A stretch of 63,764 nucleotides of DNA, counting the filler, from Gonapodya sp. JEL0774 (lineage: Eukaryota): the NCBI GenBank assembly GCA_027604505.1. It is 3 parts of 3 records of this genome, joined end to end, with 100 filler letters (N's around TTAATTAATTAA, not from the genome) between each part and the next. Parts side by side here need not be neighbours in the genome. Positions count along the whole stretch, not along the records: positions 1 to 21,503 come from JADIIX010000244.1; 2 more parts are not named here. One strand, 5' to 3'. The notes beneath the pieces are model-generated. The model was not told the DNA's origin and searched no databases. It saw only the letters and a list, made by a program, of their open reading frames with translations. Positions 1 through 56,903 of this stretch are shown in pieces. A program made the position numbers and the translations under genes. The first letter of the stretch is position 1; each line of letters opens with the position of its first letter.

Positions 1-3000
1 CTCGGCGGCGTCGGCAAGACACAGGTTGCACTCGAGTTTGCCCATCGAGTGAAGGACACAGAACGGGACTGCTCGGTCTTCTGGGTACCTGCTCTGAGCA
101 GAGAGAGTTCTGAACAGGCATTCACTCAAATTGGGGAATTATTGGGTATCGGGCGGGATGCGGAGAAACCAAAGGATATGGCGAAAACAGTCCACGATCA
201 TCTCAGCCAGGGAAAGGCTGGCCGCTGGCTTCTGATTGTCGATAACGCCGACGATGATCGCATTCTACGTGATATTGATCCTTTCCTTCCCAAGAATGAC
301 GAAAGCTGCATTTTGTTCACAACGCGCACGCAGACTGTGGCAGTGACAGCAGCACGAAAGGACATTGTACGACTCGACCAAATGGATGAAGTGGAGGCAC
401 GCACTTTCTTTCAAAATGCTCTGATCCGCGGAGAACTTGCTTCAAATGACCCATCTGTTACCGGTGAGCTTTTGAAGGATCTTACATACCTGCCATTGGC
501 GATCACCCAGGCCGCTGCGTACTTGAATACAAACGAGCCCACTACGTGCCAACAGTACATGGATATCCTCAAGCGCACTGAAAAGGATGCCATGGAGCTC
601 CTGAGTGTCAGTTCCAACGTTGGAGATGAACAAAGATCGGACAATGCGGTTGCAACAACTTGGGTGGTATCGTTTAACCGGATCCGTGAGCTCAACTCAA
701 CTGCTGAAAATCTCCTGCTCTTCATTGCTTGCATTGAGTCAAAAGAAATTCCGGAATCCATCTTGCCGGGTGCGGAATCTATTACAGATTTTCGAACTGC
801 GATTGGCGTCTTGGTTGGGTACAATTTTCTATCTGTGTCTCGTCAACAAGAAAACGGAACAAGCGAAGCGTTCTACACAATGCACCGTCTTGTCCATCTA
901 TCGGCCAGACTTTGGCTCAGCAAGAAATCGCGAACAGCGGAAGCGGTTAAAGATGCGTGTCGACATATCTCAAACATTTTCCCAACGCCTGAATGGAAGA
1001 ACCGTGTCCTATGGAGGAAATACTTGTCGCATACTGCGAGTATTCTCAGGATCAGTGAGGGGAAGGAAGTACTGGGGAGATACGACCTACTCCGCAAGCT
1101 GGGGAAGTGTTTGATGGCAGACGGACGATTTGGAGAGGCTGTGCCGTATCTTGAAGAATGCGTGGGTGGGAGCGAAACGTTACCTCAACATCACTTTTCT
1201 GCATCAAAAATGGACACTGTGCACAACCATCCAGCTAAAACATCAAAGTCAAAACAGTGGATTACCAAAATTGGAAGACAGCTCGGAATAACTACCAAGT
1301 CACTATGGACTCCATCTGACCTTGATCTGCGGCAGGAGCTTGCCCTCGCTTATCTTTACAGTGGCCAAGTTGACAGAGCGGCAACGTTGTTACTTTTTGT
1401 TGTCATGGAGCGGAAGCGCACAATGACAGATGGGAATCCCGTGCTCCTGCAGTCCCAACACGAACTCGCTCGTGCCTACCATGTGCAGGGGAAGAAGGAA
1501 GAGGCTCGGAACCTGTTGGAAAAAGTCTTTGCCAAGAGTAAGAATACACTTGAGAGTGACCATGTTGTGCGGCGAGCGATAGAGAGAGAATACCGCAGCT
1601 GGACAATTCGTGAGATTTACTGCAGGTGCTACTTTTATTGTTCGGACTCATGTGAAACACCCTTCTCATTTATTGACCAGTGGGCATGCTTCAAGGAGTG
1701 CATGGAAGCACAGGCACGGTGGTGTGGACCGACGTTCTTCAAGCAAATACCGATGTTGTCGATCTGTCATGTGAGTGGCAGCAATCCAGGGTGATGTCTG
1801 ACTGGGGAACTTGAGGCTCTGCTCACCTCACCTGATTTTGCTGTTATGTGGCATGCATTTGCCAGATAAATCCATTGGGAACGCTGGTGCCTCTATTGTT
1901 GCTAATGCGCTACGAGAAAACAAGACGTGGAGGTTACTCGCTCTTGAATGTGAGTTATTCTCTACAACAGCCGTCTTCCGAGCATGGTACGTAGTTTCCC
2001 AACGCAAGTGTGAGGATGCACCCGACCCGCCTCTTGCCCTGCCAGATGCCCACACAAGTAACACTCGCTCTCCGCACTTGCTTCACAGCTAACGCCATCA
2101 CCGAGCGGGGCGCCGAAGCGCTCACTGAAGGATTAAAATCAAACAGCACTTTGGTGGAGCTTGTTCTGAGCAGTGAGTTCTATGTCATCGGGTGTCTGTG
2201 TCCTCCTCACTCTCTTTGTCCAACTCGCTCCACCCTCCCGTCCCCATGCCATCACACAGCGAACAACGTCGGTGACGCAGGCGCCAGTGCTCTCGCCCAT
2301 GCCCTGGATACCAACAGGACATTGTCGTCTCTTGACCTCCAGGGCGAGTACTGATTCAGAGTGCTACAGCGCCTGCATCCTCACTCCCTCTGTTCGTCCC
2401 ACACGCTCAATCCTTCCGTCCCATACAACAATAAAGAGAACCGCATTGGCGACACAGGTGCCAGTACTCTCGCTGACGCTCTGAAGGTCAACCGGACATT
2501 GACGGCTGTCAAACTTGGGGGTGTGTGCATAGTCCATCCTCCCTCCCTCCCTCCTTTCGTCCCACACACTCAACCCTCCTGTCCCCACGCAATGACACAG
2601 TGAATCGCATTGGTGACGCAGGTGCTGGTGCTCTCGCCGAGGCACTGAAGGTCAATGGGACATTGACGTCTCTTAAGCTTCACAGTGGGTACCGATTCAC
2701 AGTCTCGCAGCGTCTCCGTCCTTCCTCCCTCCCTTCGTGGCACACGCTTAACCCTCCCATCACCATGCAACGACACAGACATCCACATTGGCGATGCCGG
2801 TGCCAGTGCTCTTGCCGAGAGTCTAAAGATCAACGGGACATTGATGACTCTCGACCTCAGTTGTGAGTACTGATTCGCAAATTCACAGCTTGTCTGTCCT
2901 TCCTCCCTCCCTTCGTTTTACACAACCAACCCTCCCGTCCCCACGCCACGACACAGTCAACCGCATCGGCGACGAAGGTGCGAGTGCTCTCGCCGAGGCA

Positions 3001-3395
3001 CTGAAGATTAATGGGACATTGATAACTCTCGACCTCCATGGTGAGTACCGATTCACAGTGTCACAGCGTCTCCGTCCTTCCTCCCTCCCTTCGTCCCACT
3101 CGCTCAACCCTCCTTTGCCCATGCAATGACAAAGGGAACAAAATCGGCGACACAGGTGCCCTTACGCTCGCCGAAGTCTTGACAAGCAACAAGACCTTGA
3201 CCCGTCTCGTCCTCTCTAGTGAGTATCAATCGCAGTGTCACATGTTCTCCTTCCTCCCTCCCACCCACACACTCAATTATCGCTTCCTCATACTACACCA
3301 TAGGGAACTGCATTGAAAAGTCGGGCGTCCGTTCTCTGGAGGCTCTTCAGAGTGCGGAGCGTACAATTAATGTGTCATTCCAGAGAAGGCTCTAA
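1..3395 (+). CDS. NLR paralogue 1 (5' truncated by window edge): NB-ARC, degenerate TPR, linker, 8 RI-type LRRs and a cap
   Basis: Walker A (LGGVGKTQ) at base 1, Walker B (LLIVDNADD), YLPLAI and MHRLVH motifs. Predicted exons: <1..1609, 1681..1770, 1866..1949, 2089..2172, 2260..2343 (GC donor), 2437..2520, 2601..2684, 2779..2862, 2957..3040, 3135..3218, 3304..3395 (TAA). All introns are phase 1 and the frame stays open. Confidence 0.85.
1866..3218 (+). repeat. Tandem exon+intron repeat, mostly ~165-178 bp period, one LRR per unit (8 units)
   Basis: Repeated 84-nt exons encoding NxIGDxGAxALAxALKxNxTLxxLxL, with homologous introns (gtgagtaccgattcacag...ccctcccgtccccatgcaatgacacag). Confidence 0.92.
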
Positions 3396-5476: not shown

Positions 5477-8115
5477 ACCGACCACCTCGACCTGCCCTCT
5501 TGTGTGCACCACCACGGCATGTTCTTCAACCGGTCCTCGTGGTACGACGAGGCCACGAGCGTCACGCAGTGGTGAGTCGAGTCGGTCAGGAAAAAAGTTG
5601 GTAAAGTCGGAGGAGGGGTCGGTCTCACGCACCCCCCCTCAACACTCAAGCCCCCGCGCTTACACCCCCCCATCGCGTGTCTTCGCACCCACCTCCCACC
5701 ACGCTCACGCCCCGCCCTCCCTTTCCCCCTTCGTCAGCGGCATCACCACCAACGCAACCTACACCTACATCGTCGACCCCTCCACGCCGGGCAAGACCGG
5801 CGCCTTCTGGTACCACGGACACACACGTGGGCAGTACGTGGACGGTTTCCGCGCCCCGCTCGTCATCCACCGGAGCGGAGAAAAGGCAAGAAAAGGGCCA
5901 GAGTACCACGACGAGTACGTGGTGGCGGTGTTCGACTGGTACCACGAGGAACATAGGATGTTGCTCGGGCAGCTCTTGGACGAGGCGAATCCACGTACGT
6001 GGCGGCTGGTGTGGCGGTCGAGGGTGTTTGGGGGGTGCGGAAGCGTCCGGTACCCGAGAGAGAGAGGGCACATTCTCATCCGGTACCGGAGAGAAACACA
6101 GCACGTCCTCGTCTCCCGATCACCATCACGTCTCAGTCCACTCCACCTCTTCCCGCCCCCCCCGNNNNNNNNNNGGATCGGTCTCCCACCCCGCAGGTCA
6201 CCGACACTTTCACTATGTCCCTTCCCTTCCCTCTTCCGTTTCTTCCCCCCCCGCCCTCGCCCCCCCCTCCCCCCCCCCCCCCTACCGAAACCCCCTTTCA
6301 AACGCCCCTTCAAACCCCTCACAAACCCCCCAACCCCGCAGGCGGCGCCAAAACCGTCCTCAAATCCGCCGTGGCCCTCGTGGCGCGCGACCTAGCTCCC
6401 GGGGTTGGTTCTTGGAAAATGCCACGATCCCTGTTGTGCCGGGAATGACGTAAATGTTGAGGATCATCAATATGTCGGCGTTGGCGGGGTAGCGCAGGAG
6501 CGGGGGTGGGGTGGGGGTGGTGCGGGTAAATGGGCGGGAGTTGCTCACTGTGTGTCATCTCGTCTCTTTCTGGTTCCGATTCTTGGGCTCCTCGTCGTGT
6601 TGGTTCCCGTATCTTGAATCGTGTCCTCCCGTCTCTCGTGATCAGCAATGTTCTCCATATGGATCGACGGGACAACATTACCGTAATCGAAGGTACGTAC
6701 GTCCGCTTTCTAATCGTCCACCCCCGTCCCTCATCTCCTCTTCCCCCTGCTCACTCCACTCTTCACACTTTCCCTACCCTCACCCCCCTCTAGTCGACGG
6801 TACCAACGTAGAACCGTACCCCATCGACATGGTCACGCTTTTGGTTGGATCAGCGGATCTCGGTATCGGTCAAGAACCAGACGGACACCAATTCGTTGGT
6901 GCGTATGAACTTGGTGCGCACTGGGGGCCGGGGGAACGGGGCAATGGGGAAAGGATGTGAGTTTTTACACTGATTTTTGTGGTTACACAGTCCTGACAAT
7001 TTTGATTTCGTGCCGGACGATGTGCACTTGAGTGAGTGGAACGTGCTCCCCGGCTGACGTGCAGGTACCACAACGATTGTTAGCGTCACTCGCACCATCC
7101 CCCTGCCTTTCCCACCCTTACAGACATCACCACCGCCATCTTCTACAACTCCTCCTTCCCCACCGCCGACAGCACCACCGTCGACGAGGACCTCGAGTTC
7201 CCCGACGCCGGCCTCGTCCCCGTCGATGCCGAAGCCGAAGCCCGGGCCGACGTGTCCATCACCCTGGCGGCCACCTTCGACACGGCCGATGACGGGACCA
7301 ACCGCGCGTTTTTGAACGAGGAGGCCTACGTGATCCCCGTGACGCCAACGCTTTTGACGGCCAGTTTGATGGGGAACTTGGGGGGGGATGCGAGGGTGTA
7401 CGGGCGGACAAGTATCTGTACTGGAATTGGAGCGGAATGTCGAGATGTGAGTGGTTGTATCGCAGGGGGATGTGATGAAGCGACGGCACACGCACCTCAC
7501 ACCTTCAACCCCAAAACAGCGTCGTCCTCAACTTGGACGTCGGTAACCCCTCTTCCACCTCCACGGGCACAAGTTCCAGATGGTGGGCACCACCATGGAC
7601 GTGACCTCAGACGATGTCACGGTGAACCCGCCCGTCCACGAGGGCATCGCCAACCACATGTGGGGAGATATCATCATGATGCCTCCGGGGGGGTCCAGGA
7701 TAATTTGGTTAAGGGCGGATAATCCGGTGGCCTGGCTGTGGGGTTTTGGCGTGAATTGAGGGTCCTTAGGGTCCACCATTCCACCCCCTCCCCGTCCCGT
7801 TACCCCCTTCAGGTTCGACTGCCACGTCAAATGGCACCTCGAGTTCTATCCCCCCACTTCATCGACGCGCCCTCGCCAATCCAGGCGCTGGCCGAAACTG
7901 GCTCAGCACTACCAGGCGCTCGGCGTGTCGGTCGCGGGGAATTCGGGAGAAGACGTTGGTGACGGTGGGTTTTGGGACGTTGGGTTGGGGGACGGTGTGG
8001 TTGAGTACCAAGGTACTAGAAGTGGCGCGGCCCTGGCCATCCAGGCCAAGAAGTGTCCAAGTGGCAGAGGGCGAAGAAAGATGCTCAGTAAAGGACCCGA
8101 GCAGGAGAAGAAGTA
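5477..8115 (+). pseudogene. Fet3-like multicopper oxidase pseudogene, copy A (boundaries approximate)
   Basis: Fragments HHHGMFFN..WYD..SVTQ, FWYHGH..GQYVDGFRAPL, DWYHEEH, IINMSALA, DGTNVEPYPID, FHLHGHKFQ, RADNP and FDCHVKWHLE (His ligand lost). Frameshifts and an internal gap are present. Confidence 0.8.
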
Positions 8116-8512
8116 GAGCGTGTGGGGATGGGGATAGGGTGGGGTGGGTGGTTGGCGTGGGAGGTGGGACTTGGAACGGACGCGTGCGAGCTTTTGTTTC
8201 AGTGATTTATGTAATGTAGATATCACGTGATCTGTAGCACAGAACATTTTGATTCTATTGATGTTGCAGTTCATTGAGAGCGCCGTCCTGCGGTTCCTCT
8301 GGTGCTACGGAGCGGGAAATCCTTCGAGAGCTTCGACACGTTATCAAACTTGCTCATTCACGTTGCGTGTTTGCATCTTATACTTCTTCGTCGGCGTTTA
8401 CTTTTTTGTGAAAATCGTTTCGAGAATTGGGTTCGTCTGCAGATCCCGGCCGGGCTGATCAGTTTTAGCAGCCGGCAACTGGAATCCCTCACAGCCCCCG
8501 TTCTTGAAAACC

Positions 8513-11500
8513 ATGCTGGGCGACACCGCTGATGCCGCGAAATCGACGTTTCCAGATTCAAATGCACGAACGGGGGACATAGCAGTAGCCAAACAGGAGA
8601 TCGGCGGCTCTGCCCGTGTTCACATTGGAAACACCACTATCATCAACAACAATCATCCGACGTAAGTTTCACCATTCGAATTCACAGGGACACACTTCGT
8701 TGAGTCTCACTCATTTGATGTCAGACCTACGATCCCAACAGTGTCTCCAGCAGGTGATGCAGCTCGTCCCTCATCAGCACAGTATTACATTCCATTTCGC
8801 CGGAACAAGCAGTTCGTTGGCCGCGCCAAAACCATCGATGAACTACATCGCAAGTTGTTTCAAGAAAATTGTGGACGCGTCGCTCTAGTGGGACTCGGCG
8901 GCGTCGGCAAGACAGAGGTTGCACTCGAATTTGCCCATCGAGTGAAGGACACGGAACGGGACTGCTCGGTCTTCTGGGTACCTGCTCTGAGCAGAGAGAG
9001 TTTTGAACAGGCTTACACTCGAACTGGGGAATTATTGGGTATCGGACGCGATGCGGGGAAACAGAAGGATATTCTGAAAACAGTCCACGATTATCTGAGC
9101 CAGCAAACGGCTGGTCGATGTCTCCTGATCGTGGATAACGCCGACGATGATCGTATTCTGCGTGACATTGAACCTTTCCTTCCCGAGAGTGACGAAAGCC
9201 GGATCTTGTTCACAACTCGCACACGATCAGTGGCCGTTGCAGCAGCACAAACGCACATTGTGAGGCTCGACCAGATGGATGAAAAGGAGGCAAATTATTT
9301 CTTTCAAACTGCTCTATTTCACAAAGAACTTGCCACAGACGACCTGGTTGTTACCGCTGAGCTCTTGAAGGATCTTACCTACCTTCCCTTGGCGATCAAC
9401 CAGGCCGCTGCGTACTTGAATACAAACGAGCCCACAACGTGCCGACAGTACCTTAACATGTTGCAGGGCAGTGAGAAGTATGCCATTGCGCTCCTGAGTG
9501 ACAGCACGGGTATTGCAGCTTATCACAGATCGGACAATGCAGTTGCAACGACATGGCTGGTGTCATTCAACAGGATTCGCGAACTCGATTCCACTGCGGA
9601 AGCCATTCTGCTATTCATGGCTTGCATTGAGTCGAAGGAAATTCCGGAATCTATCTTGCCGGGTGAAAGAACTAGTCCAGCTTTTCGAAGTGCGATTGGC
9701 ATATTGGTTGGCTACGCATTTCTGTCACTGTCACATCAACAAGTAAATGGAACCAGCGATGTGGTTTACATAATGCACCGTCTTGTCCATCTGTCGGCCA
9801 AGCTTTGGCTCAGCAAGGAATTGCGAACAATGGACGTCGTTAAGAATGCGTGTCAACACATGTCGAACATTTTCCCAACACCTGAATGGAAGAATCGTGA
9901 CATTTGGAGGAAGTACTTACCGCACACTGTAAATCTTCTCGGGATTGGGGAGGGGAAGGAACTTGTTGAGCGATATGACCTGTGCCACAAACTGGCGAAG
10001 TGTATGATGGTGGATGGAAAATTTGAAGACGCTGTACCATATCTCGAAGAATGTGCTGGTAGGAAGCAGAAACTGGACACATCGCAACATGATCACCTCT
10101 ACCGCTCGATGTCAGAACTGTGGTTCAATCATATCGGCAGACAATTGAGAAACTTCACTCAAACATTTTGGAGCACACCTAACCAGTCTACTGAACGACA
10201 GTGGACGGCATCTGACCTTGATCTTCGGCAGGAGCTCGCCCTTGCTTATCTATACAGTGACCAATTTGACAAGGCGGAAGACTTGTTACTTTTTGTTATC
10301 ACAGAGAAGAAGCGCACTATGAAAGATGGGAATCTCTCGCTCCTGCAGTCCCAACACGAACTCGCTCGTGCCTACCATCTGCAGGGGAAGAGGGAAGTGG
10401 CCTGGAACCTGCTGGCACAGGTCCTTGACAACAGCAAGAATACGCTTGCGAGTTGCCATGTTGTGCTGCAAGCAATACACAAAGATTATTGGAACTGGTG
10501 GGATTGTGAGATGTGCTGCATGTGCTACTTTTCTTGTTCGTACTCATGTGACACTGCCTTATCAATTATTGACGAACAGACAGTGGTATAAGCACACACA
10601 CGGTGGTGTGGACTGACGTCCTGAAAACGAACGTGGATGTTGTCGATTTGTCAGGTGAGCGGCAACAAACCAGGGTGATGTTTGACTGTGGCAATGGAGG
10701 TGCTGCTCACCTTCCATGACTTAACTGCTACACGCCGTGCATTTACAAGATGGATCCATTGGGGATGCTGGTGCCTCAGTTGTTGCTAATGCACTACGAT
10801 ATAACAAAATGTGGAGAGTACTAAATCTCAGATGTGAGTTACTGTCTACAACAGCTGTCCTGGGAGCATGGTACGCTGTCCCCAGGCAGATGTGTCCAGA
10901 TATGGGCTAGCGCCCCATCTGCCTCTCACCCTGCCACATGCCCTCAAATGTAACGCTCGCTTGCCCGCCCTCGCTTCACAGCAAACTCCATTACTGAGCA
11001 AGGCGCCGAGGTGCTCACTGAGGGATTGAAATTAAACAGCACTTTGGTGGAGCTTGTTCTGAGCAGTGCGTTGTACGTCATGGGGTGTCCGTGTCCTCCG
11101 TCACTCCCTTCTTCCAACACGCTCCACCCTCCTGTCCTCACGCCACAACACAGAGAACTTCATTGGCAATGTTGGTGCCAGTGCTCTCGCGGAGGCTCTG
11201 AACATCAACACGACGTTGACATCTCTGGACCTCAGGGGTGAGTAGCGATTCACAAGTGACAGCGACTCCGTCCTCCCTCCCTCCTCGACGCTCAACACTC
11301 GCCCCACACCACACCACAGACAACAGCATCAATGAAACAGGTGCAAGTGCTCTCGCCGAAGCCTTGACAAGCAACAAGACCTTGATGGTCATCGACCTCT
11401 CTTGTGAGCCGTGTCACAGCATCTCAGTCCTCACTCCCTCACTTTGTCCCACACGCTCCACCCTTCCATCCCCATGTAACAACAAAGCAAACCACATTGG

Positions 11501-12838
11501 CATCATAGGTGCCAGTGCACTCGCCGAGGCTCTGAAGATCAATGGGACATTGGCGTCTCTGGACCTCCTAGGTGAGTACTCATTCACAATGTCGCGGCTT
11601 CCCCGTCCTTCCTCCCTCCCTTTGTCCCACGCGCTCAACCCTCCCGTCCCCACGCAATGGCACAGGGAACGCAATCAACGACGCAGGTGCCAGTGCTCTC
11701 GCCGAGGCTTTGAAGATCAATGGGACAATGAAGTTTCTCAACCTCCATGGTGAGTACAGATTCACAGTGACACAGTGTCTCCGTCCTCATTCCTCCCTTC
11801 GTCCCACATGCTCAACCCTTCCGTCCCCATGTAACGACAAAGCAAACGACATTGGCATCGCAGGTGCCATTGCTCTCGCCGAGGCTTTGAAGATCAATGG
11901 AGCGTTGACGTCTCTCGACCTCCGTGGTGAGTGCCGATTCACAGTGTCACAGTGTCTCCGTCCTTCCTCCCTCCCTTCGTCCCACATGCTCAACCCTTCC
12001 GTCCCCATGTAACAACAAAGCAAACCACATTGGCATCGCAGGTGCCAGTGCTCTCGCCAGTGCCCTGAAGATCAACGGGACATTGACGTCTCTTAACATG
12101 GGGGGTGAGTACCCATTCACAGTGTCACAGCGTCTCCGTCCTCCCTCTTTGTTCGCACCGCACGCTCGACCATCCTGTCCCCAGGTTATGGCGCAGGGGA
12201 CGCAATCAGGTACATAGGTGCCAGTGCTCCCTCCAGGGCTTTGAAGATCAATGGGACATTGACGTATTTTGACCTCCTAGGTGAGTACCGATTCACAATG
12301 TCGCGGCTTCCCCGTCCTTCCTCCCTCCCTTTGTCCCACGCGCTCAACCCTCCCGTCCCCACGCAATGACACAGGGAACGCAATCAGCGACGCAGGTGCT
12401 AGTGCTCTCGCCGAGGCTCTGAAGGTCAATGGGACATTGACGTTTCTTGACCTCTGTGGTGAGTACAGATTGACAGTGTCACAGTGTCACAGTGTCTCCG
12501 TCCTTCTTCCTCACTTGGTCCCACCCGGTCAATCCTCCTTTCCCCATGTAATAACACAGAGAACAAAATCAGTGACATAGGTGCCATTGCTCTCGCCGAA
12601 GCCTTGAAGAGCAATAACACCTTGACGGATCTCAACCTCTCTTGTGAGTACAAATCGCCGCTTCACAGGTATTCCGTCCTCCCTCCCACCCACACGCTCA
12701 ACACTTGCTTACCCATACCATACCATAGATAACTTCATTGGCGAGTCCGGCGTCCGTGCCCTCGAGGCCCTTCAGAGTGCCGAGCGTACAATTGATGTTT
12801 CAAACCAGAGAAGTCTCTCATATCTATTTCTTCGTTAA
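8513..12838 (+). CDS. NLR paralogue 2: amyloid-like motif, NB-ARC, degenerate TPR, linker, 11 RI-type LRRs and a cap
   Basis: Exons 8513..8661 (MLGDTADAAK...IGGSARVHIGNTTIIN), 8725..10505 (FVGR, GLGGVGKT, LLIVDNADD, MHRLVH) and 10580..10654. Then 84-nt exons starting at 10750, 10982, 11154, 11320, 11488, 11666, 11843, 12021, 12197, 12375 and 12560, and a terminal exon 12729..12838. Splice sites are canonical and the frame is open. Confidence 0.88.
10750..12643 (+). repeat. Tandem exon+intron LRR repeat array (11 units)
   Basis: 84-nt exons spaced mostly 166-185 bp apart, with near-identical introns recurring. Confidence 0.92.
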
Positions 12839-14469
12839 TTCAGTATATTTTGATGTCTGTTGTTCTATCAGTACTTTCATCTGTATTTCCAATTGCTCAT
12901 CGAATCAGGAAATGAACACCGTGCCTCGATGGATGTGGTTGACTCGCTCCCACACAGACTCGCACCGTCCTCCGCCCTGGCCACACTTATGTGAAAATCA
13001 ACTGATTAAATTTGATTCGTCTACGCGCAACGCAGAAGATTTGTATCGTGATGCACCACTTTCTTACGCTCTGGTACATCACTTCAGAGTTCAGCCATGT
13101 GTAACTTTCTCAACCACGTCACTACGCTCTACAGAGAGTATATTTCAATGATATTATGGCTATCACTCTCGACCATAGACTGAGTTGTTTACCCCGACAG
13201 GACGGTGTGGTCATTTGCGAAATTTCTGATTGGGCGTTTTGTCCCCATCCTTCGGATTATAGACGGTACACACATAAAGTCGAAGTCCTTTTTACAATTT
13301 GCAATCGACCGTGAGATGCGTAATTCTCATTTGCTTGAGACTTGGTACGTGCTTTAGCGTATCAAATTTCTGCTACTGGACGGAAAAGTTCAACGGGTTT
13401 CATTCACGACACAGTACAGGCCATCCTCTGTGTGCGCTACGACCGAAATAGCGGGCCCCGCGTAGAATCCCGCTTAGCTCTTGCGTTTAGCGGTCACGGT
13501 TTCTTGCCAGCATCGTCAGTTTGATCTTGGAGCTGGACTCCGCGACAGAACCATCCTCGGGTGTCCGAGTCATTTTCGGAAGTGGCTCGGAGACTCAGAG
13601 TCAAATGTCGACTGCTGTGCACCGCTTTTTGGCTGAGCCGTCGGAGCGGATGTACGTCGTGGTTGGGTTGGAAGATAAGGGGTATCGGTGTGATTTGGGT
13701 TCAAGTCTTCATTTCAGTGGATGCCGTGTCTCGCACCCAATCTACCAGCAATGGTCGACTGCGACTTCTTTTCCTATGGTCCTACGTTGGGTCTTCCTCC
13801 GGCTTCGCTCTTGGATCCGGATTTCGTCTGTGGAGAGGGTGCACATAATACAGGGAGACCGCGGTCGTGACCTCAGCAATCAGTGTGAGCCGCACTCTCT
13901 CTCCGTCACACGCATTCTCGATGAATGAATTGAATCCGCTATCACGCAACGGCATCCGCACAGTCACAGATCGCCGTTCAAATGAAAGATCGTTTCTTCC
14001 CTGCCGCCGACAAACTTACCTCCCCTTAACACACTATGTGCTCGGCCGTAGCCCTCCGTACCCACCAAAGCCGTGTTCACCTCTCAACACGACCTTTTCT
14101 CCGCCATTCTATTCTCCTTCTTTGGGGTTGGTTTTCGAGTTTTGGATCAGGGTCATCGGGCATGGGGTGTGGCCTGGTTGGGGATTTGGGAGTTTTGGTC
14201 TCGCAGCTGGTGCTATGGTTGGGACATGACAGCGGGTGGGAGAGAGTTCGACGTTGATGGAACCGAATTTTCAACGGTTCAATGCCTCTCGATCACCTTT
14301 CCGTCCCATTCCCCGTTTTCCTTCTCCCACCAACCCAGCCACACCACACGATCAACCTCCCCAATCATCAAGTCCAAGCGGTCCTGCACGTGTTGCGCAA
14401 GCGGGCAGCCCGTGGTCATGTGGAGACCTTGCTGGAGGTGGGGCGAGGATGGAGGTGAAGAAGGTGAAG

Positions 14470-17400
14470 GGTCCGTCGAGAACCACAACTTGACGCTGGC
14501 AAAGTCAGTTTTGGTCTGCTCGCAATGTGTGTTCCTCTCAAGACTGAAATCATTCTTGCCCCCTACCTCTATCCCACCCCACCTGCCTACCGCCTAGACG
14601 CCACCCCCGTCGACGCGGCCCGCCTCCACTCCAACACATTCTTCGTGGCGATATTGCAGGCGCACCACGAGATGACGTACCATAGGACGGGGGGTAAGGG
14701 TGACAGCGGGGCCGGGGTGAAGATGCGAACGGTCCAGAGGGCGAGAGCACCGACCTTGACAGTGGTGGGACGGAGGATGAGACGGTGAAGGAGCAAGAGA
14801 TGGCGATGCGGTGTGCGGGGTACGGGTCGACTCGTGTGCGATGGCGTCCACAGCCGTTCACTCGCCCGCACCTCCGGCCACCACCACGACCACCACGGTG
14901 CACGCTGTCGCTGCGGTACCGACGGTGCAGATGGACGAGGTCCTTGGCCACGTGTCCGCAACCGAGTTCGGGAAGGAGGGTCGGTGCTGGCATCGGGGAT
15001 CATTTACGACGAGGAATCTGAAGGAAATTGAACATGTGAAAGGAGAGGAAGAGTTGGATGGTGTGGGATGGTGGTGGTGCCTGAGCTGTGGGGGCATGGT
15101 GGGTCGGTCAGGCTACGGTAACGAGCATCACCTCGGGGACTCGGAACCGGTTGTTCCTCACCGGGCGCCGCCGCCACCGAGCACACGCATGACCACGCAC
15201 CCCTCTTTCCCGAGTTCTTGGTGGACCCTGCGCCTTCCTCGGCCGGGTCCGCGCGGCGCGCCCGGCGGGCGGGGCGCCGCCGCGCGGGGGGGGGGGGGGG
15301 GGCGGGGGGGGGNNNNNNNNNNCCCCCCCCCGCCCCCCCCCCGCGGCGAGGGACCGTGGGTCGCCGTGTCAACTTCTACACCGGTCGGTATCCACTTCCA
15401 CACCGGTCGTCGATCACGTCACCACAGCGCCAGCCCCTTTGTCGGTGCTCCGCTGGCGCGCAACTTTGGTGACAACTGCGCCGGCGATGCAGTATTCGAT
15501 GGTGCCACCGATCCCCGTTTCAACCACACCTGTGCCCACGGATCATCGACCATCCCGAGAGACGGATCCCGAATTTGTCCTAGCATGCGCCTGGGTGCGG
15601 GTACGCGTACGACAAAGAGGGTGTGGCGGTGGCAGGCAAGGTGAGGTGTGTGGAGAGGGAGCATGACCATGCCTGGAGCGAGGGGGGCCAGCAAGGCAGC
15701 GACAGTGAAATATCTTGCGTCAAGTCCGGGTGGTGGGATTCCACCATCTGCGTCTGGTCACTGCAGACGACACTAGTCGCGATATTGCGACTCTCGTGGG
15801 AGAATGGGGCACCGTGCCTCCGACATTCGACCTCGCGGTCCGACTGGAACCACCTGCGATTCTACTCCGAACCCATCGTGTCCGCCAAGCTCACCTCGTT
15901 GCACGACATTCTCCTCAACTACGTGTCCCGCTCCGTCTTTGTCCATTCCCCCCTCACGCCTCACCTCTTCCTGTCCTGTCATCAAACCCCCACCCCACCT
16001 CTAGTCGAAGGTGCCGACGTGGAGCGATACCCCATCTCTATGGTCACCCTTTCGGTGGCGCAGTGGGTGTCCGTGTTGTCACGGCAGAGATTGAGACCGG
16101 CGGCAATTGATTGGTGGATATAAATATGATGCGTGAAAGGGCAGGGGAGTGGGTGTAGGTTATAAACATTCGTTTTCGGTTCGAACGTTGTCATTGTGTC
16201 TTGCAGGCTCCGGACATGTTTGATTTGCACCTGAGTGAATGCAAATCCACGACGGTTCCTCGTGCCAGCTGCCACGGCAACGCGAAATCACTCACACCCT
16301 CGGCTTCACACCCAGACATCACCACCACCAGCCTCTACACCTGGTCCTTCCCCACCGGCCGACGGCACCACTCTCGACGAGAACCTCGAGCTCCCCGACG
16401 CGGACCTGGTCCCCATCGATTCGAACCCCGAAACCTCTGCAGACGTGTCCATCACGCTGGCGGCACGTTCGGCGCGGCCAACGACGGATCCAACCTGCCG
16501 GTTGTCAACGTCACGCGTGACGTACGTGACACCAGTGGCGCACACGCCGTTCACGGCGAGTTCGATGGGGTACTTAGTCGGGGGACACGAGGATGTACGG
16601 GCCGACGAATACTTCTGTGCTTGCGTTGGGGCAGAATATTGAGATGTGAGTTTGGGGGGTGTGGGGGTGGGGGGTGAAGCGACGGCACACACAGACTCAC
16701 CCCACACCTCACACCGCACACCTCACACATGCACCGCCCCACTACGTCAGAATCGCCAACCTGGACGCCAGGTATCACCCCTTCGACCTCCACGGCCACA
16801 AATTTCGAATCTTGGGCACGAGCATGGACGTAACCTCGGACGACGTCAGTGTGAAACCGCCCGACCACAAGGGCATGGCGAACCGCATGAGATGGGATAC
16901 CACTAAGGTGCCGCTCGTGGGGGTCCGGAAAATTTGGTTTAGGACGGATAATCCGGGGCGTTGGCTGTGGGGTGTTCTGAACGGAGGGGGCGCGCGGTGA
17001 CAAGTCGAGCCGTGTGACGATGTGGCGGTTCACCCACCGTTCGAACCCACCCTTCGCCTCCCGTTCCACCTTCGCCCCTCCAGGTTCCACTGCCACATCG
17101 AATGGCACTCGAGTCCTGGCCGCCCACTTCATCGAAGCGCCTTCAGCAATCCAGGCATTGGCCGCCTCTGCCCCGCCACAACTGGCTCAGCACTGCCAGG
17201 CGCTCGGCGTATCGGTCACGGGCAATGCGGGATGGAAGATGTCGGTGACAGGTGGGTTTCGGTATGGCGGGTGGCGGGGTTTGTGGTGGTGTGATCGGCG
17301 CCAGATATTTTATTTTGTTCATCGGTTTTTTGTTTGTTTCGCGCCAACAGGACTTTGGCGCGTACTCGTTAGGTCCGCACGTGCAAGTGCTCGGGTTTGA

Positions 17401-17704
17401 GGCCAAGAGCATCGTGAGTACACCCCTCTATTACCATCTTCTTCATCACCTGCAACCCCCTCACGACTCCTCAGTTCCCACCCCGCCCAGCCCTCTCCCC
17501 AACCAGATCGGACTCGTCTTCTCTACCCTCTCAGCCGTCCTCGGCATCGCCGCCGTCGCGTGGTACCCCCTTTGCGGCGGCCTGGACGACGAGGAGCTGG
17601 AACTGGAAGTGGCCGCGACCACGGCCATCAAGGCCAAGAAGGGGTCCAAGTGGCAGAGGGCGAAGAACATTTTCAGTAAACGGACCGAGCAGGAGAAGAA
17701 GTAA
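14470..17704 (+). pseudogene. Fet3-like multicopper oxidase pseudogene, copy B, with C-terminal TM helix (5' boundary approximate)
   Basis: VEGADVERYPI, YHPFDLHGHKFRILG, FRTDNPGRWLW, FHCHIEWH followed by a frameshift, and TM IGLVFSTLSAVLGIAAVAWY. The tail KKGSKWQRAK..EQEKK is homologous to copy A. Confidence 0.8.
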
Positions 17705-18083
17705 AGCGGCTGGGGTGGATGGTTGGCGCGGGATGTGGGATCTTGGCACGGACGGGTGCGAATGTTTTGATTCAGAGATATATGTAATGGAGATATCACG
17801 TGATCTGTAGCACCGACCACTCTAATTCTATTGTTCATTATTGAGAGCGTCGTCCTTCGGTACTCGTTCGGTGAAATGGAGCTGGAAATCCTTCGAGAGC
17901 TTCGACACATTATTAAAGTAGCTCATTCACGTTGCATGCTTACATTGTATGCGTCTTCTTAGGCATTTATTACTTCGTGAAGGTGAAAATTGTCCCGGAA
18001 CTGCGTTCATAACAAAGGATGGCGGGCTGATCCAGTTCAGCAGCCGAAAACCGAATCCTCCACAACCCTTGTGCTTGAACAGC

Positions 18084-21000
18084 ATGCTGGGCAACACTGC
18101 TAATGCCGCGAAATCAACGTTTCCCGATTTAAATGCACGAACGGGGGACATAGCAATAGGCAACCAGGACATCGGCGGCTCTGCCCGTGTTCACATTGGA
18201 AACACCACTATCATCAACTACAACCACCAGACGTAAGTTTCACATTTCGAATCAACAAGGAAACAGTTCGTTGACTCTCGCTCATTTAATGTCAGACCTA
18301 CGATCCCAATAGTGTATGGAGGAGTTCATTCGGCTCGTTCCTCGTCACCACAGTATCACATTCCATTTCGCCGGAACAAGCAGTTCGTGGGCCGCGCCAA
18401 AACCATCGATGAATTATATCGCAAGCTGTTTCAAGAAAACTGCGGACGCGTTGCTCTTGTGGGACTCGGCGGCGTCGGCAAGACACAGGTCGCACTCGAG
18501 CTTGCCCATCGAGTGAAGGACACAGAACGGGACTGCTCGGTGTTCTGGGTACCTGCCCTGAGCAGAGAGAGTTTTGAACAGGCATACACTCAAATTGGGG
18601 AATTATTGGGTATCGGGCGGGATGCGGAGAAACCAAAGGATATGGCGAAAACTGTCCACGATCATCTCAGCCAGGGAAAGGCTGGCCGCTGGCTTCTGAT
18701 TGTCGATAACGCCGACGATGATCACATTCTACGTGATATTGATCCTTTCCTTCCCAAGAATGACGAAAGCCGCATTTTGTTCACAACGCGAACGCAGACT
18801 TTGGCGGTGACAGCAGCACGAAAGGACATTGTACGGCTCGACCAAATGGATGAAGTGGAGGCACGCACTTTCTTTCAGAATGCTCTGATCCGCGGAGAAC
18901 TTGCTTCAAACGACCCATCTGTTACCGGTGAGCTTTTGAAAGATCTCACGTACCTACCATTGGCGATCAACCAGGCCGCTGCGTACTTGAATACAAACGA
19001 GCCTACTACGTGCCAACAGTACATGGATATCCTCAAGCGCACTGAAAAGGATGCCATGGAGCTCCTGAGTGTCAGTTCCAACGTTGGAGATCATCAAAAA
19101 TCTGACAATGCGGTTGCAACAACTTGGGTGGTATCGTTTAACCGGATCCGTGAGCTCAACTCAACTGCTGAAAATCTTCTACTTTTCATTGCTTGCATTG
19201 AGTCCAAGGAAATTCCAGAATCCATCTTGCCGGGTGCGGAATCTATTACAGATTTTCGAACTGCGATTGGCGTCTTGGTTGGGTACAATTTTCTATCTGT
19301 GTCTCGTCAACAAGAAAACGGAACCAGTGAAGTGGTTTACACAATGCACCGTCTTGTCCATCTGTCGGCTAAAATTTGGCTCAGCAAGGAATCGCGAACG
19401 GTGAAAGCTGTTAAGGATGCATGTCAACAAATCTCAAACATATTTCCAACCCCTGAATTGAAGAATCGTGACATTTGGAGGAAGTACTTACCGCATACTG
19501 CGAATGTTCTCCGGATCAGGGAGGGGATGGAACTCATTGAGAGATATGAGCTATGCTACAAGCTGGCGAAGTCTTTAATGGTAGACGGAAGATTTGCGGA
19601 GGCTGTGCCATATTTTGAAGAATGTGTCTATCGGAGAGAGACCTTGGCACAAGAGAACCATTCTGCGTCAAAAGTGAACACTGTGGACGACCACCGGGGC
19701 AAAAGATTGAAGCCAAATCTGTGGATCTTCAAAATTGGCAGGAAACTTGGCCTAAATTCCACACCACTCAAGAATACACCTGATAGGTTGACGGAACCAC
19801 TATGGACTCCGTCTGAACTTGCTCTGCGGCAAGAGCTGGCCATTGCTTATCTCTACAGTGACCGAGTTGACAAGGCAGAAGAGTTATTGCTTCTCGTGGT
19901 GACAGAGCGGAAGCGCACTATGACAGATGAGAACCCCATTCTCCTACAGTCCCAGCACGAACTTGCTCGTGCCTTCCGTTTGCAGGGGAAGAGGGACGAG
20001 GCCTTGAACCTGCTGGCACAGGTCCTTGCCGACAGCAAGAATACGCTTGAGAGTGACCATGTTGTGCGACAAGGAATAGAGCAGGATTATTGGAACTGGC
20101 TGCGTTGTGAGATGTGCTGCATGTGCTACTTTTCTTGTTCGGACTCATGTAACACTGCCTTCTCAATTATTGACAAACAGACAGTGGCGGAAGCGCGCGC
20201 GCGGGGTTGTGGACCGACGTCCTGAAAAAGAACGCGGATTTTGTCGATTTGTCAGGTGAGCGCCAACAAGCCAGGGTGATGTTTGACTGTGGCAATGGAG
20301 GTGCTGCTCACCTTACATGACTTTACTGCTACATGCTGTGCATTTACAAGGTAGATCCATTGGGAATGCTGGTGCCTCAGTTGTTGCTAATGCACTGCGA
20401 GAAACGAAAATGTGGCGAGTACTCAATCTCAGATGTGAGTTATTCTCTACAACAGCCGTCCTGGGAGCATGGTACGCTGGCCCCACGCGGATGTGTCCAC
20501 ATATGGGCTAGCGCCCCATCTGCCTCTCACCCTGCCACACGCCCTCACATGTAACAGTCGCTTGCTTGCCCTCGCTTCACAGCAAACTCCATTACTGAGC
20601 AGGGCGTCGAGGTGCTCACTGAGGGATTAAAATTAAACAGCACTTTGGTGGAGCTTGATCTGAGCAGTGGGTTCTACGTCATGGGGTGTCTGTGTCCTCC
20701 CTCACTCCCTTCTTCCAACACGCTCCACCCTCCTGTCCTCACGCCACGACACAGTCAACTTCATTGGCAATGTGGGTGCCAGTGGTCTCGCGGAGGCTCT
20801 GAACATCAACAGGACGTTGACATCTCTCAACCTCAGCTGTGAGTACCGATTCACAAGTTACGGCGACTGCGTCCTCCCTCCCTCCCCGACGCTCACCACT
20901 CGCCCCACACCACAACACAGACAACAAAATCAATGAAACAGGTGCAAGTGCTCTTGCGGAAGCCTTGACAAGCAACAAGACCTTGATGGTCATGAACCTC

Positions 21001-21503
21001 CGTGGTGAGCTGTGTCACAGCATCTCCGTCCTCACTCCCTCCCTTCGTCCCACATGCTCAACCCTTCCATCCCCATGTAACGACAAAGCAACCCACATTG
21101 GCATCGCAGGTTCCATCGCTCTTGCCGAGGCTTTGAAGATCAATGGAGCGTTGACGTCTCTCAACCTCAGTGGTGAGTGCCGATTCTCAGTATCACTGTT
21201 TCATCCGTCCTTCCTCCCTCCCTTCATCCCACACACTTATCCCTCCGGTCCCTACGCTATGACACAGAGAACTTCATCAGTGACGCAGGTGCCAGTGCTC
21301 TCGCCGAGGCTCTGAAGATCAATGGGACATTGGCGTCTCTGGACCTCCTAGGTGAGTACTCATTCACAATGTCGCGGCTTCCCCGTCCTTCCTCCCTCCC
21401 TTTGTCCCACGCGCTCAACCCTCCCATCCCCACGCAATGACACAGGGAACGCAATCAGCGATGCAGGTGCCAGTGCTCTTGCCGAGGCTTTGAAGATCAA
21501 TGG
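18084..21503 (+). CDS. NLR paralogue 3 (3' end lost in assembly gap): amyloid-like motif, NB-ARC, degenerate TPR, linker, at least 7 LRRs
   Basis: Exons 18084..18232 (…GDIAIGNQDIGGSARVHIGNTTIINYN), 18296..20106 and 20181..20255. Then 84-nt exons at 20351, 20583, 20755, 20921, 21089 and 21268, and a partial exon from 21446 running into Ns. Confidence 0.86.
20351..21503 (+). repeat. Tandem exon+intron LRR repeat array (6 full units and 1 partial)
   Basis: Same 84-nt exon/homologous intron unit as the other two arrays. Confidence 0.9.
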
Positions 21504-21603
21504 NNNNNNNNNNNNNNNNNNNNNNNNNNNNNNNNNNNNNNNNNNNNTTAATTAATTAANNNNNNNNNNNNNNNNNNNNNNNNNNNNNNNNNNNNNNNNN
21601 NNN

Positions 21604-23810: not shown

Positions 23811-23948
23811 TGTGTTGGGTGGAGGATGTGGGCTGATTTTCGGGTTGAGTGAACGTTCAAAAACTTGCGTTCCACAGAGTTGGTGGAGGACAAACTGGAC
23901 ACAGTCAGTCACCCAAGCTATTTTTCCTTGTCTCTCTCTGCTGCAGAC

Positions 23949-53039: not shown

Positions 53040-56000
53040 ATGTCGGACAGGCGTGCCGGAGGTCAGGGGTGCCCCGAACACAATGTTTCTCCGGATCACA
53101 CTTGTCAACTTACCCTACACACCGCTGAACAGCTCCCGATGGCACCACGATGAGACGCCTGCGTTCCGACGAGTATACGGTCGGCTGGGTATGCGCTCTT
53201 CCGACCGACCTCGCAGCGGCGCGGGCAATGTTTGACGAGGAGTACCAACCACTAGACCGTGACACGATGGACACCAACATCTACTCTTTCGGTCGGATCG
53301 GTGTCCACAATGTTATCGTCGCTTGCCTTCCAGCTGGAAATCGCGGGACGAACTCTGCCGCAACGGTTGCGAACAACCTCGGCCGGACCTTCGATTCCCT
53401 GCAGTTCCGTCTCATGGTAGGCGTCGGAGGCGGTGTTCCCAGCTCGGACGCAGACATTCGGCTGGGGGATGTGGTCGTCAGTCAACCCTTGGAAACTCAC
53501 GGAGGCGTGGTGCAGTACGACATGGGGGAAACAACTCCTGAGGGGTTCCAGCGAAAGGGATTCCTCAACAGTCCACCGCTGTTGCTTCTCAATGCCGTCA
53601 ACAGACTACGTGCCAATCATCTTGCCGGAAACAATGACTTTGCACAACACCTTGAGAAGCTTCGTCGGCTTCCAGAATTCCGCCGCGAGGCTACTGGCCC
53701 AGACATCCTGTTCCATCCCACCTACAAGCACGAACGTGGCCGCCACATGTGCACATCCTGCAATCCAATCATGCAGGTGAAATCACGACCAGATCGGTTG
53801 GGTGGAGATCCCGTGGTTCACTACGGCTTGATTGCATCCGGGAATCAGGACATGAAGGACGGGGTCCAGCGGGACCGAGTCAGCAAAGAGCTCGGGGGAG
53901 TCCTGTGCTTTGAGATGGAAGCGGCAGATCTTATGAACCACTTTCCATGCCTCATCATCCGTGGTATCTCCGACTATGCGGACTCACACAAAAACACCTG
54001 CTGGCAAGGGTATTCAGCAGGCACAGCTGCAGCATGTGCCAAGGAACTCCTGTTGGTAATACCAAGGACTGATCCGGGAACTCGAGGTACGCGCCTTCCT
54101 CTGTTTTTGCTGTCGTGCTCCCGGTATCATCCTTATCTGTTGTAACTAAACTGATACCATCCTCGCGGTCATTCATGCAACAGCCTACATCCCTTTCCCA
54201 CGGAATCCCCGTTTTGTGGGCCGCACATCGCAGCTCCAACAGCTGGCGCAGAAGCTGCTGCACAACGAGGAATGCCGGGAGATTGCGCTCATCGGCCTCG
54301 GCGGGGTCGGGAAGACTCAGGGGGGTCGGGAAGACTCAGGTTGCTCTGGAGTTTGCTTACCAAGTTAAGCAAGAACATGCCGACAGGGACGCTCTGTGTT
54401 TTGGTTGCCTGCAGTCAGCATGGAAAGCTTCGAACAAGCATGCAGGGAAATTGCAAGAACCCTGGGCATACCTTCGGAAAAGGATGACGACATCAAGGTA
54501 GTGGTCAAGCAGCATCTGAGTACGAAGAAAGCCGGTGTCTGGCTCATCATCCTCGACAACGCCGACGACATCGGGCTTCTGACTGGTTCCAAGGGATCTC
54601 GGGGTATTGTACACTACCTTCCGGAGAGCGAGGATGGGCTCTTCGTGTATACAACCCGCACTAGAGATGTTCCCTTGTCACTTGGAGTGGCCGATGTTAT
54701 TGACGTGGACGCCATGGACAAACAGGAAGCAAAAGACCTACTTCAAAAGTCCCTCATGCGCAAGGAGCTGCTCAATGACAATGCAAGCGTGGATAAATTC
54801 CTGGAAGAACTTACATATCTTCCATTGGCACTCTCTCAGGCAGCAGCATATCTCAACAAGACCAAGAACATCTCTATTGCAGATTACCTTGGCATGCTGC
54901 AAAGCACACAGGTGGCCGACGTGCTGAGCAGGGAATTCGTCAACATCCAGCGTTACTCCGGATCGAGCAATTCTGTGGCAACAACGTGGCTGGTTTCATT
55001 CAACCAGATCCGCACAAACGATCCACTAGCAGGGGCCCTTCTGGCATTTATGTCGTGTATCGAGTCTAAGGCGATTCCTCGATCTATCTTGCCTGCGTTG
55101 GAGTCAAGATTCAAAATGGAAGATGCTATTGGCACCCTTACTGACTACGCCTTTGTGTCGCCTCGGAAGGACCAGGACATGTATGACCTCCACCGGTTGG
55201 TGCATCGTGCGGCTGGAGACTGGCTCCGCATACAGGGCCTCACGGCAGAAAGGACAAGAGAAGCGATCCAGCATATCGCGAGAATTTTTCGCACAGACGA
55301 TTGGGACCAGAGGAATGTGTGGAGGGCGTACCTCCCGCACGCCATGAAAGTGCTGGGAAGCAGCGAAGGCAAGGAATTGGCGGAGCGATACGACCTTTGC
55401 CTGTGGATCGGGCGATGCTTGCAGAAGGACGGCAGGGTGCCAGAAGCCCTGATGTGGCTTCAGAAATGCAACATCGGAAGACGGGACGAGCTGAAACTGG
55501 AGGAGGACCACCCGGACCGTCTCACCTCGCAGGCTGTACTCGCTTCCGTGTACCAGGACAATGGGCAGGTGGGCAAGGCCGTCAAGCTGCTGGAGCACGT
55601 CGTCGCCGTCCGTGACCGGGTTTTGGTCGAGGACCACCCGGACCGTCTCGCCTCCCAGAACAACCTCGCTTGGGCGTACCAGGCCAACGGGCAGGTGGGC
55701 AAGGCCGTCACGCTGCTGGAGTACGTGGTCGCTGTGTTATCCACAACATTGGCCGAGGACCACCCGTCCCGTCTCGCCTCCCAGAACAACCTCGCTTCCG
55801 CGTACCAGACCAACGGGCAGGTGGGCAAGGCCGTCTCGCTGCTGGAGCACGTTGTTGCCGTCCGTGAGCGGGTTTTGGCCGAGGACCACCCGTCCCGTCT
55901 CATCTCGCAGCTCACCCTCGCTCAGGCATACCAGGCCAACGGGCAGGTGGGCAAGGCCATCACGCTGCTGGAACACGTCGTCGCCGTCGAATCCACAACA

Positions 56001-56903
56001 TTGGTCAAGGACCACCCGGACCGTCTCACCTCGCAGGCCAACCTCGGTTCTGCGTACCAGGCCAACGGGCAGGTGGGCAAGGCCGTCACTCTTCTGGAGC
56101 ACGTCGTTGCCATCCATAAGCGGACGCTGGCAGAGGACCACGAATCTCGACTGGCTTGCGAGGCGGCCCTCGCCAGGGCGTACCAGGCCAACGGGCAGGT
56201 GGGCGAGGCTGTGGCAGTGCTGGAGCACGTCGTCGCCGTCCATAAGCGGACGCTGGGAGAGGACCACCCGTCCCGTCTCGGCTCGCAGGTCAACCTCGCA
56301 TCTGCGTACGAGGCCAACGGGCAGGTGGGCAAGGCCGTCACCCTGCTGGAGTACGTCGTCGCCGTCCGTGAGCGGATTTTGGCCGAGGACCACCCGTCCC
56401 GTCTCGCCTCCCAGAACAACCTCGCATCTGCGTACCAGGCCAACGGGCAGGTGGGCAAGGCCGTCACGCTGCTGGAGCACGTCGTCGCCGTCGAATCCAC
56501 AACATTGGCCGAGGACCACCCGGACCGCCTCGCCTCGCAGCACAACCTCGCTTTGGCGTACCAGGCCAACGGGCAGGTGGGCAAGGCCGTCACGCTGCTG
56601 GAGCACGTTGTCGCCGTTCGTGAGCAGGTTTTGGCCAAGGACCACCCGGACCGTCTCATCTCGCAGGCCAGCCTCGCATACGTCAAACAGGCCATGGCGG
56701 GGGCTGCTCTCTCGGCAGAAGCGGGTGAGGTCAGTGGTGGTGAGGATGCACGCCATGTGAGTGTGAGGTCCATAGTGGGTGGTAGTGGAAGCCAAGTGGC
56801 GTCGGGGCCCCCACTTGGTGGCGGACCATCACCACATGGGAAGAAGAGCAAGAGGAGTGACGGTGTGTTCCAGAGAATGTGGAACAAAGTCATTGGGAAA
56901 TAG
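53040..56903 (+). pseudogene. PNP_UDP-NB-ARC-TPR NLR, reading frame disrupted just after Walker A
   Basis: PNP domain 53150..54086, intron 54087..54183, then YIPFPRNPRFVGR..GLGGVGKTQ. A 19-nt duplication at 54321..54339 brings TAA 54366-54368 into frame, and there is an apparent 1-nt loss near 54389. An intact NB-ARC remainder and TPR array run to 56903. The start at 53040 via intron 53062..53132 is tentative. Confidence 0.8.
55500..56693 (+). repeat. 126-bp / 42-aa highly conserved TPR repeats (9 full and 1 partial)
   Basis: EDHPxRLxSQxxLAxAYQANGQVGKAVTLLEHVVAVxxxxL repeated with near-identical DNA. Confidence 0.95.

Follow-up and report, generated by a model that had tools for sequence, protein, structure and literature searches.

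Do fungi possess intracellular receptors that sense their ligands through leucine-rich repeats (LRRs), as plants and animals do? Survey and review papers published between 2014 and 2025 report that fungal NOD-like receptors (NLRs) lack them (PMC4986451, PMC5658179, PMC12881547), as the first-pass annotation of the DNA discussed here had stated. The 5,616 fungal candidates of one survey were without LRR motifs, and chytrids gave that survey no hits (PMC4986451), and proteins joining a nucleotide-binding site (NBS) to LRRs appeared absent from fungi (PMC12881547). A gene family of Gonapodya sp. JEL0774 (assembly GCA_027604505.1) raises the question anew. In a stretch of 63,764 nucleotides, assembled from three parts of this genome and called the window below, three tandem gene copies (A, B, and C) carry LRR exons directly behind an exon for an NB-ARC switch and tetratricopeptide repeats (TPRs). 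The LRR_6 array departs from the repeats of the surveyed fungal NLRs, namely, TPR, WD40, ANK, and HEAT (PMC4986451, PMC5658179, PMC12881547).

These copies are real genes of a Gonapodya fungus, intact and part of an expanding family. Each probably encodes one spliced protein, a predicted intracellular immune receptor with a short amyloid-like tip, an NB-ARC switch, a short TPR stalk, and an LRR array. The fungal host proposed in the first-pass annotation is borne out, with exons matching, letter for letter, GenBank models of this monoblepharid (Monoblepharidomycetes). Gonapodya is an early-diverging, water-mould-like fungus. A protist or choanoflagellate host, suggested by the intron style, is ruled out by the same matches.

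Three Tandem Gene Copies

Copy B is the complete member of the set. Its model runs from 8513 to 12838 on the plus strand, with 15 exons, 1,012 amino acids, no internal stops, GT-AG borders at all 14 introns, and 12 LRR units. Exon 1 (8513..8661) encodes a 49-residue N terminus with a candidate HET-s-like amyloid motif at about 8570–8630, modeled at a low predicted local distance difference test score (pLDDT). A phase 2 intron of 63 nt leads to exon 2 (8725..10505; 1,781 nt), which holds the NB-ARC, helical domains, a variable insert, and about three TPR-like hairpins. The junction intron (10506..10579) is 74 nt long, is in phase 1, and reads GTGAGA...AACAG. Behind it comes the linker exon (10580..10654; 75 nt) for a capping helix and the first LRR strand, followed by eleven 84-nt phase 1-1 exons (10750..12643), each encoding a 28-residue ribonuclease inhibitor (RI)–type repeat and starting at 10750, 10982, 11154, 11320, 11488, 11666, 11843, 12021, 12197, 12375, and 12560. 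The tenth is degenerate, its frame still open. The last exon (12729..12838) supplies a capping LRR unit and the stop codon.

The other two copies, also on the plus strand, are cut off at one end. Copy A (1..3395), whose 5' end lies off the window, has an NB-ARC–TPR exon reaching 1609, a 90-nt linker exon at 1681–1770, eight 84-nt LRR exons, and a last exon at 3304–3395; its 10 introns are all canonical (nine GT-AG, one GC-AG), and it has no stops. Copy C (18084..21504) has exon 1 at 18084–18232, the NB-ARC–TPR exon at 18296–20106, a 75-nt linker exon at 20181–20255, and at least seven LRR exons before its 3' end is lost in the gap of N's after 21504; nine of nine introns are GT-AG, and there are no stops. 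A repeat hidden Markov model (HMM) run over the window's six frames found 28 LRR units, with 9, 12, and 7 directly behind the three NB-ARC exons. It found none elsewhere in the window, including behind a TPR-only paralogue at 53–57 kb, and no spare or inverted LRR exons in the introns of the copies. The arrays span about 9–12 RI-type LRRs.

The Predicted Junction Between Switch and Repeats

The phase 1 donors named in the first-pass annotation, at 1610, 10506, and 20107, are GT and in phase 1 in all three copies, and the open frame through the linker into the LRR exons is confirmed as stop-free under canonical (GT/GC-AG) splicing in each. For linker plus first LRR exon, the phase 1 frame is free of stops in all three copies, and five of the six alternative frames contain them. 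The reported linker lengths are correct, and the argument for selection built on their being multiples of three is weak alone because a single 15-nt indel accounts for the difference; an alternative in-frame AG at 1695 would give copy A a 75-nt linker as well.

Between copies B and A the ratio of nonsynonymous to synonymous rates (dN/dS) is 0.31 for the NB-ARC, 0.29 for the linker (24 codons), and 0.34 for LRR1–4, and the deficit of nonsynonymous change is significant by the Fisher test for linker plus LRR1–4 (p = 2e-6) and for the linker itself (p = 0.012). The frame read by running through the junction intron differs by 10 nonsynonymous changes versus 1 synonymous change. Purifying selection thus acts in this comparison on the exons for linker and LRRs but not on the read-through tail, which ends after 61, 28, and 39 codons in copies A, B, and C.

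GenBank models P0121, P0002, and P0001 share the junctions of the window copies. P0121 is the model of copy B, 100% identical to exon 2 and with the predicted junctions 10505/10580 and 10654/10750; residues 1–591 of P0002 equal the copy A model letter for letter, and P0001 equals the copy C model in the same way through to where the linker ends. Six more Gonapodya models (P0122, P0003, P0004, P0031, P0028, and P0251), 34–81% identical, have a short TPR stalk followed at the same place by a similar linker, which leads into a full LRR array or its start. These models are automated, and one of them is misjoined, as set out below; hence they are not independent proof.

Domains, Switch Motifs, and Fold

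Pfam places NB-ARC above its cut-off in all three window open reading frames (ORFs), and copy B exon 2 gives NB-ARC at 8e-18 and TPR_12 at 1.5e-5. The full combination that the first-pass annotation expected of a Pfam scan appears in P0003, where NB-ARC, TPR_10/12, and LRR_6 are all above cut-off; P0121 yields NB-ARC and LRR_6 (1e-22). Single LRR exons, at 27 residues, are too short for Pfam and give weak LRR_6 matches in two of four cases. The switch motifs (in copy B, Walker A, Walker B, sensor, LPLAI, and MHR) are intact, the P-loop of copy A beginning at the window edge. Pfam detected no NACHT domain in the window copies or P0121 and no TIR, coiled-coil (CC), or RPW8 domain at the N terminus. 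In the window copies the TPRs lie within the NB-ARC exon, and the LRRs follow via the predicted splice.

An AlphaFold model was built with a 38-row alignment; P0121 folded from its sequence alone gave a model too poor to use (pLDDT 40.5). With the alignment, the pLDDT is about 90 over the NB-ARC and TPRs and 76–92 from the linker helix through the first repeats, with the linker forming a helix at 652–659 and a strand at 664–666. RI-class LRRs are marked by units of 28–29 residues with a beta strand, an alpha helix, and an LxxLxLxxN pattern. The assignment of the repeats to the 28-residue RI type holds, given the unit length, the alternation of strand and helix (pLDDT 76–92, residues 661–770), and matches to RI and NOD2. 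By sequence, the LRR part of paralogue P0031 matches RI, NOD2, and NLRPs in the PDB, and the TPR part matches Podospora structures 4y6c and 4y6w. The TPR array is shortened, as first proposed, to about three helical hairpins and a capping helix in the fold, rather than to about two repeats.

The amyloid motif of the first-pass annotation stands as a candidate. HET-s-related amyloid motifs (HRAMs) are defined by G19 together with hydrophobic residues at positions 5, 8, 10, 16, and 18 (PMC4518210). Like the motifs described there, the Gonapodya N terminus has G19, R15, and hydrophobic residues at 5, 10, 16, and 18 (four of the five positions) in a single copy at the NLR N terminus; it differs in having Q or E at position 8 and I at position 3, and no adjacent double-motif HeLo effector was found in the window (PMC4518210 for comparison). 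Position 8 is polar in all four motif copies, which departs from the HRAM pattern, and Pfam HET-S reaches only E = 0.018 on this N terminus (15.4 bits against a cut-off of 24.3). HRAM receptors usually have a cognate effector next to them that ends in a matching motif; no other copy of the motif, hence no such partner, occurs in the window's six frames. The HRAM-like motif appears in 3 of 240 listed proteins, all from Gonapodya. One model, P0122, has two tandem copies of the HRAM-like N-terminal exon behind about 270 unrelated residues, which may stem from a misjoined gene.

Variation Among Repeats and Copies

Nineteen internal repeats are most variable at unit positions 1, 3, 24, and 28, and their framework residues are near-fixed. 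At six ligand-facing positions picked from the LRR pattern, on the face by which known LRR proteins bind ligands, dN/dS over all pairs is 1.7 versus 0.32 elsewhere, the pairs not being independent. Across 1,000 random sets of disjoint repeat pairs, pN/pS is 1.24–1.32 at the ligand face versus 0.42–0.43 in the framework. For the closest pairs the ligand-face excess has p = 0.009 against the pooled synonymous rate, a rate that the choice of pairs lowers. The repeat intron splits the most variable codon, at position 1.

The copies are also mosaics. A and C are alike in most of the NB-ARC (93–97%, versus 73–83% to B), and B and C are alike in the junction and first repeats (88–94% versus 71–82%). 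Parts have been exchanged between the tandem copies.

Weighing the Alternatives

Several observations weigh against a single spliced product. The junction splice is predicted from the genome rather than from RNA. Its donors score 2.8, 5.2, and 6.8 and its acceptors −1.6, −2.4, and 0.4, values in or under the bottom part of the range seen for the other 30 introns, whose donors score 6.0 or more. The scoring matrix is biased, since repeated introns dominate it. The linker of copy A contains an in-frame ATG at 1686, and the comparison of B with C, with dN/dS of 0.7–1.0 for linker and LRR1–4, contains few differences and is uninformative. Among the GenBank models, P0121 has one repeat cut short, omits the last two exons, and continues wrongly into a neighboring oxidase fragment, and P0046 stops after the TPRs. 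Splice sites weaker than those of the repeat introns would suit one gene with two products, in which the junction intron is often retained and a short NB-ARC–TPR protein, its domains left intact by retention, is made beside the full LRR receptor; we consider frequent retention unlikely, as the retained tail is Cys-rich, is not conserved in length, and is without purifying selection. Prediction from the genome and the ATG of copy A could also be read as signs of two adjacent genes, one for an NB-ARC–TPR protein and one for a separate LRR array, that underwent duplication as a pair and were joined by artefact. This is highly improbable: The read-through frame extends into the linker exon and leaves no room for a terminator and promoter, copies B and C have neither an in-frame ATG ahead of mid-LRR1 nor a polyA-like hexamer in the interval, and the arrangement recurs in models just 34–47% identical. 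Each gene very likely encodes one spliced NB-ARC–TPR–LRR protein, the two-isoform case included.

Whether that protein senses ligands is a separate matter, on which further points count against the receptor reading. The ligand-face excess has p = 0.08 when set against its own local synonymous rate. The top Foldseek matches are NOD2 and NLRP chains at template modeling (TM) scores of 0.2–0.3 and a root-mean-square deviation of about 27 Å, and the likeness of fold therefore applies per domain only. The fused protein might accordingly be real without being an immune sensor, with LRRs that form a scaffold for structure or regulation and that vary through relaxed constraint and gene conversion; its immune role is drawn by analogy, no effector was found in the window, and selection at the ligand face leaves a modest signal. 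Such a scaffold is the least probable of the explanations considered, however, because the variation is restricted to ligand-facing positions over a constrained framework, and tandem expansion, unequal repeat numbers, and mosaic copies fit birth-and-death immune families (PMC3341825). By analogy with known receptors, the family is inferred to have an immune-receptor role.

Distribution and Origin

The protein matches covered the best 120 of 2,195, the best 120 of 805, and the best 150 of 95,020. LRR Pfam families occur in 4 of 240 listed matches, all from Gonapodya. When 383 sequences were scanned (380 listed matches and three window models), 304 matched the NB-ARC core and 9 of them had LRR units by the repeat HMM, which missed 13 distant LRR proteins. 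These nine are eight Gonapodya or window models and one distant protein, P0374, or 1 of 289 listed from outside Gonapodya. P0374 is 2,480 residues long and combines TPRs with two stretches of NB-ARC and a long run of LRR_6 repeats, Pfam finding both NB-ARC and LRR_6; at 25% identity and from a distant NB-ARC lineage, it is, by its predicted domains, another NB-ARC plus RI-type LRR architecture. Neither Gonapodya prolifera nor another chytrid is named among the matches listed.

Trees were built from 302 rows with FastTree and from 76 rows with IQ-TREE in quick mode, excluding three duplicates of the window copies and matches with fewer than 300 aligned residues. The 13 rows from Gonapodya, of which 10 belong to the LRR-bearing groups and 3 are TPR-only, make up a single clade with support of 99–100 among ascomycete NB-ARC–TPR proteins. 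With a prokaryotic root the Gonapodya clade is nested, but the approximately unbiased (AU) test does not reject ascomycete monophyly (p = 0.661, 40 rows). Horizontal transfer from ascomycetes is suggested by this distribution. The nearest relatives are without LRRs, and the LRR array was therefore likely grafted on inside the Gonapodya lineage. The graft behind a shortened TPR array proposed in the first-pass annotation thus gains support from a clade with TPR-only paralogues and outside relatives without LRRs, in trees with plant NB-ARCs outside them. Branch support bearing on one versus two LRR grafts is 69 and 20.

The TPR-only paralogue in the window (53129..56903, plus strand) belongs to the clade of the LRR copies and encodes PNP_UDP, NB-ARC, and a full TPR array, with no LRR exons. 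Its frame is broken at the P-loop (54270–54400) by a short tandem duplication, and there is a second frame change; it is either a broken gene or an assembly error. Just upstream, at 51768–52712, lies a stand-alone PNP_UDP gene, a possible effector whose ORF is without an amyloid-like tail.

The closest named LRR arrays among the matches listed are Mortierella proteins, at about 53% over 320 residues. A word search with linker plus LRR returned eight proteins. A metagenome scan with a single protein found no relative, and an alignment-based scan found an LRR unit in 0 of 80 metagenome loci (5-kb flanks) and 0 of 80 prokaryote loci (1.5-kb flanks). All 10 ESM Atlas clusters listed for P0031 are NB-ARC/TPR types and none carries an LRR family, the search covering the larger clusters. 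One Acidobacteriota metagenome-assembled genome (MAG) has an NB-ARC (L001:1501-2694) that matches the Gonapodya family at E 4e-71 versus 1e-20 to 4e-34 for the other 79 prokaryotic loci, a closeness that may reflect transfer or a binning error.

A Proposed Mechanism and Its Evolution

On the model of known STAND receptors, the ADP-bound switch would be held shut until a foreign or altered-self molecule on the concave LRR face releases it, upon which ATP binding would assemble the receptors into a ring. The N-terminal motifs, thus clustered, would template the amyloid folding of a separate cell-death effector, none being found in the window. In paralogue P0028, activation would instead switch on a fused PNP_UDP enzyme.

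As to origin, an ascomycete-type NB-ARC–TPR gene may have expanded in the Gonapodya lineage and lost most of its TPRs, and an exon-per-repeat LRR array may have been gained through the phase 1 intron. With the intron splitting a highly variable codon, new exon neighbors would create new residues. One proposal takes NBS–TPR to be ancestral (PMC9815663), and TPR-only genes, TPR plus LRR genes, and different N termini coexist in this one genome, which would make it a snapshot of the proposed transition from NBS–TPR to NBS–LRR. We put at about even chances the whole of this scenario, an independent NBS–LRR invention inside fungi in which an ascomycete NB-ARC–TPR gene arrived by horizontal transfer, most of its TPR sensor was replaced by exon-per-repeat LRRs, and ligand binding diversified by exon shuffling or skipping.

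Comparison with Known Receptors

The NB-ARC–TPR NLRs of Pezizomycotina are, among the matches listed, the closest to the Gonapodya family in NB-ARC and TPR_10/TPR_12 type, in identity (34–45% over exon 2), and in tree neighborhood. They are often labeled kinesin light chain and have PNP_UDP, patatin, HET, or amyloid N termini (PMC4986451). The Gonapodya proteins differ from them by a short TPR array followed by an LRR array and by an early-diverging host.

Animal NACHT–LRR proteins (NOD2, NLRP, NLRC) share 28-residue RI-class LRRs behind a STAND switch, and NOD2 and NLRPs are among the top sequence and fold matches. Gonapodya, in contrast, has NB-ARC rather than NACHT, a TPR stalk between switch and LRRs, no death-fold domain, and LRR arrays whose closest named relatives among the matches listed are not those of animal NLRs. 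Plant NB-ARC–LRR proteins (6j5t, 9cc8) likewise combine the two modules in one chain and appear as weak fold matches at ranks 48–49. They are without the TPR stalk, whereas Gonapodya is without TIR, CC, or RPW8, and its nearest NB-ARCs are from ascomycetes. No plant protein is among the matches listed. Plant LRRs belong to another LRR class. A further parallel is a system with LRRs on ROCO GTPases or kinases, which likewise has single-repeat exons of symmetric phase, clustering, and diversifying selection on the repeats; there the NB-ARC carries TPRs, whereas in Gonapodya it carries TPRs and LRRs.

Is the architecture already catalogued, as the first-pass annotation allowed? It exists in automated GenBank models as hypothetical proteins, and no published description was found in a literature search that covered mostly open-access papers. 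One study ran LRR profiles over 122 proteomes, that of G. prolifera among them (PMC12258605); its text parts mention no LRR-bearing NLRs, and 17 of its supplement files contain no match to "LRR," with a per-proteome table beyond that scope that could bear on novelty. No description of the architecture was met in PMC10197012, PMC13449251, PMC11291939, or 10.1101/2024.11.26.625400. The Gonapodya family likely contradicts a repeated generalization about fungal NLRs and preserves an intermediate state. If true, it is both a fungal exception and an intermediate with TPRs and LRRs in one chain, and because TPR-only sister genes lie in the same genome, the swap of repeats can be dated, mapped, and tested.

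Other Genes in the Window

Intron-rich, multicopper oxidase-like genes (Pfam Cu-oxidase_3, with a C-terminal membrane-like helix) lie at 5400–8120 and about 14000–17705. They alternate with the NLR copies, the pair repeating in tandem about every 9.6 kb, and the second oxidase copy looks degenerate. A Crinkler N-terminal domain (Pfam 2e-21) at 23853–25166 is followed by an ORF without a Pfam match. On the minus strand, 39036–40544 encodes a protein with ankyrin, coiled-coil, and SH3 regions, and at 44374–47334 a single ORF encodes an array of 19 Sel1 repeats.

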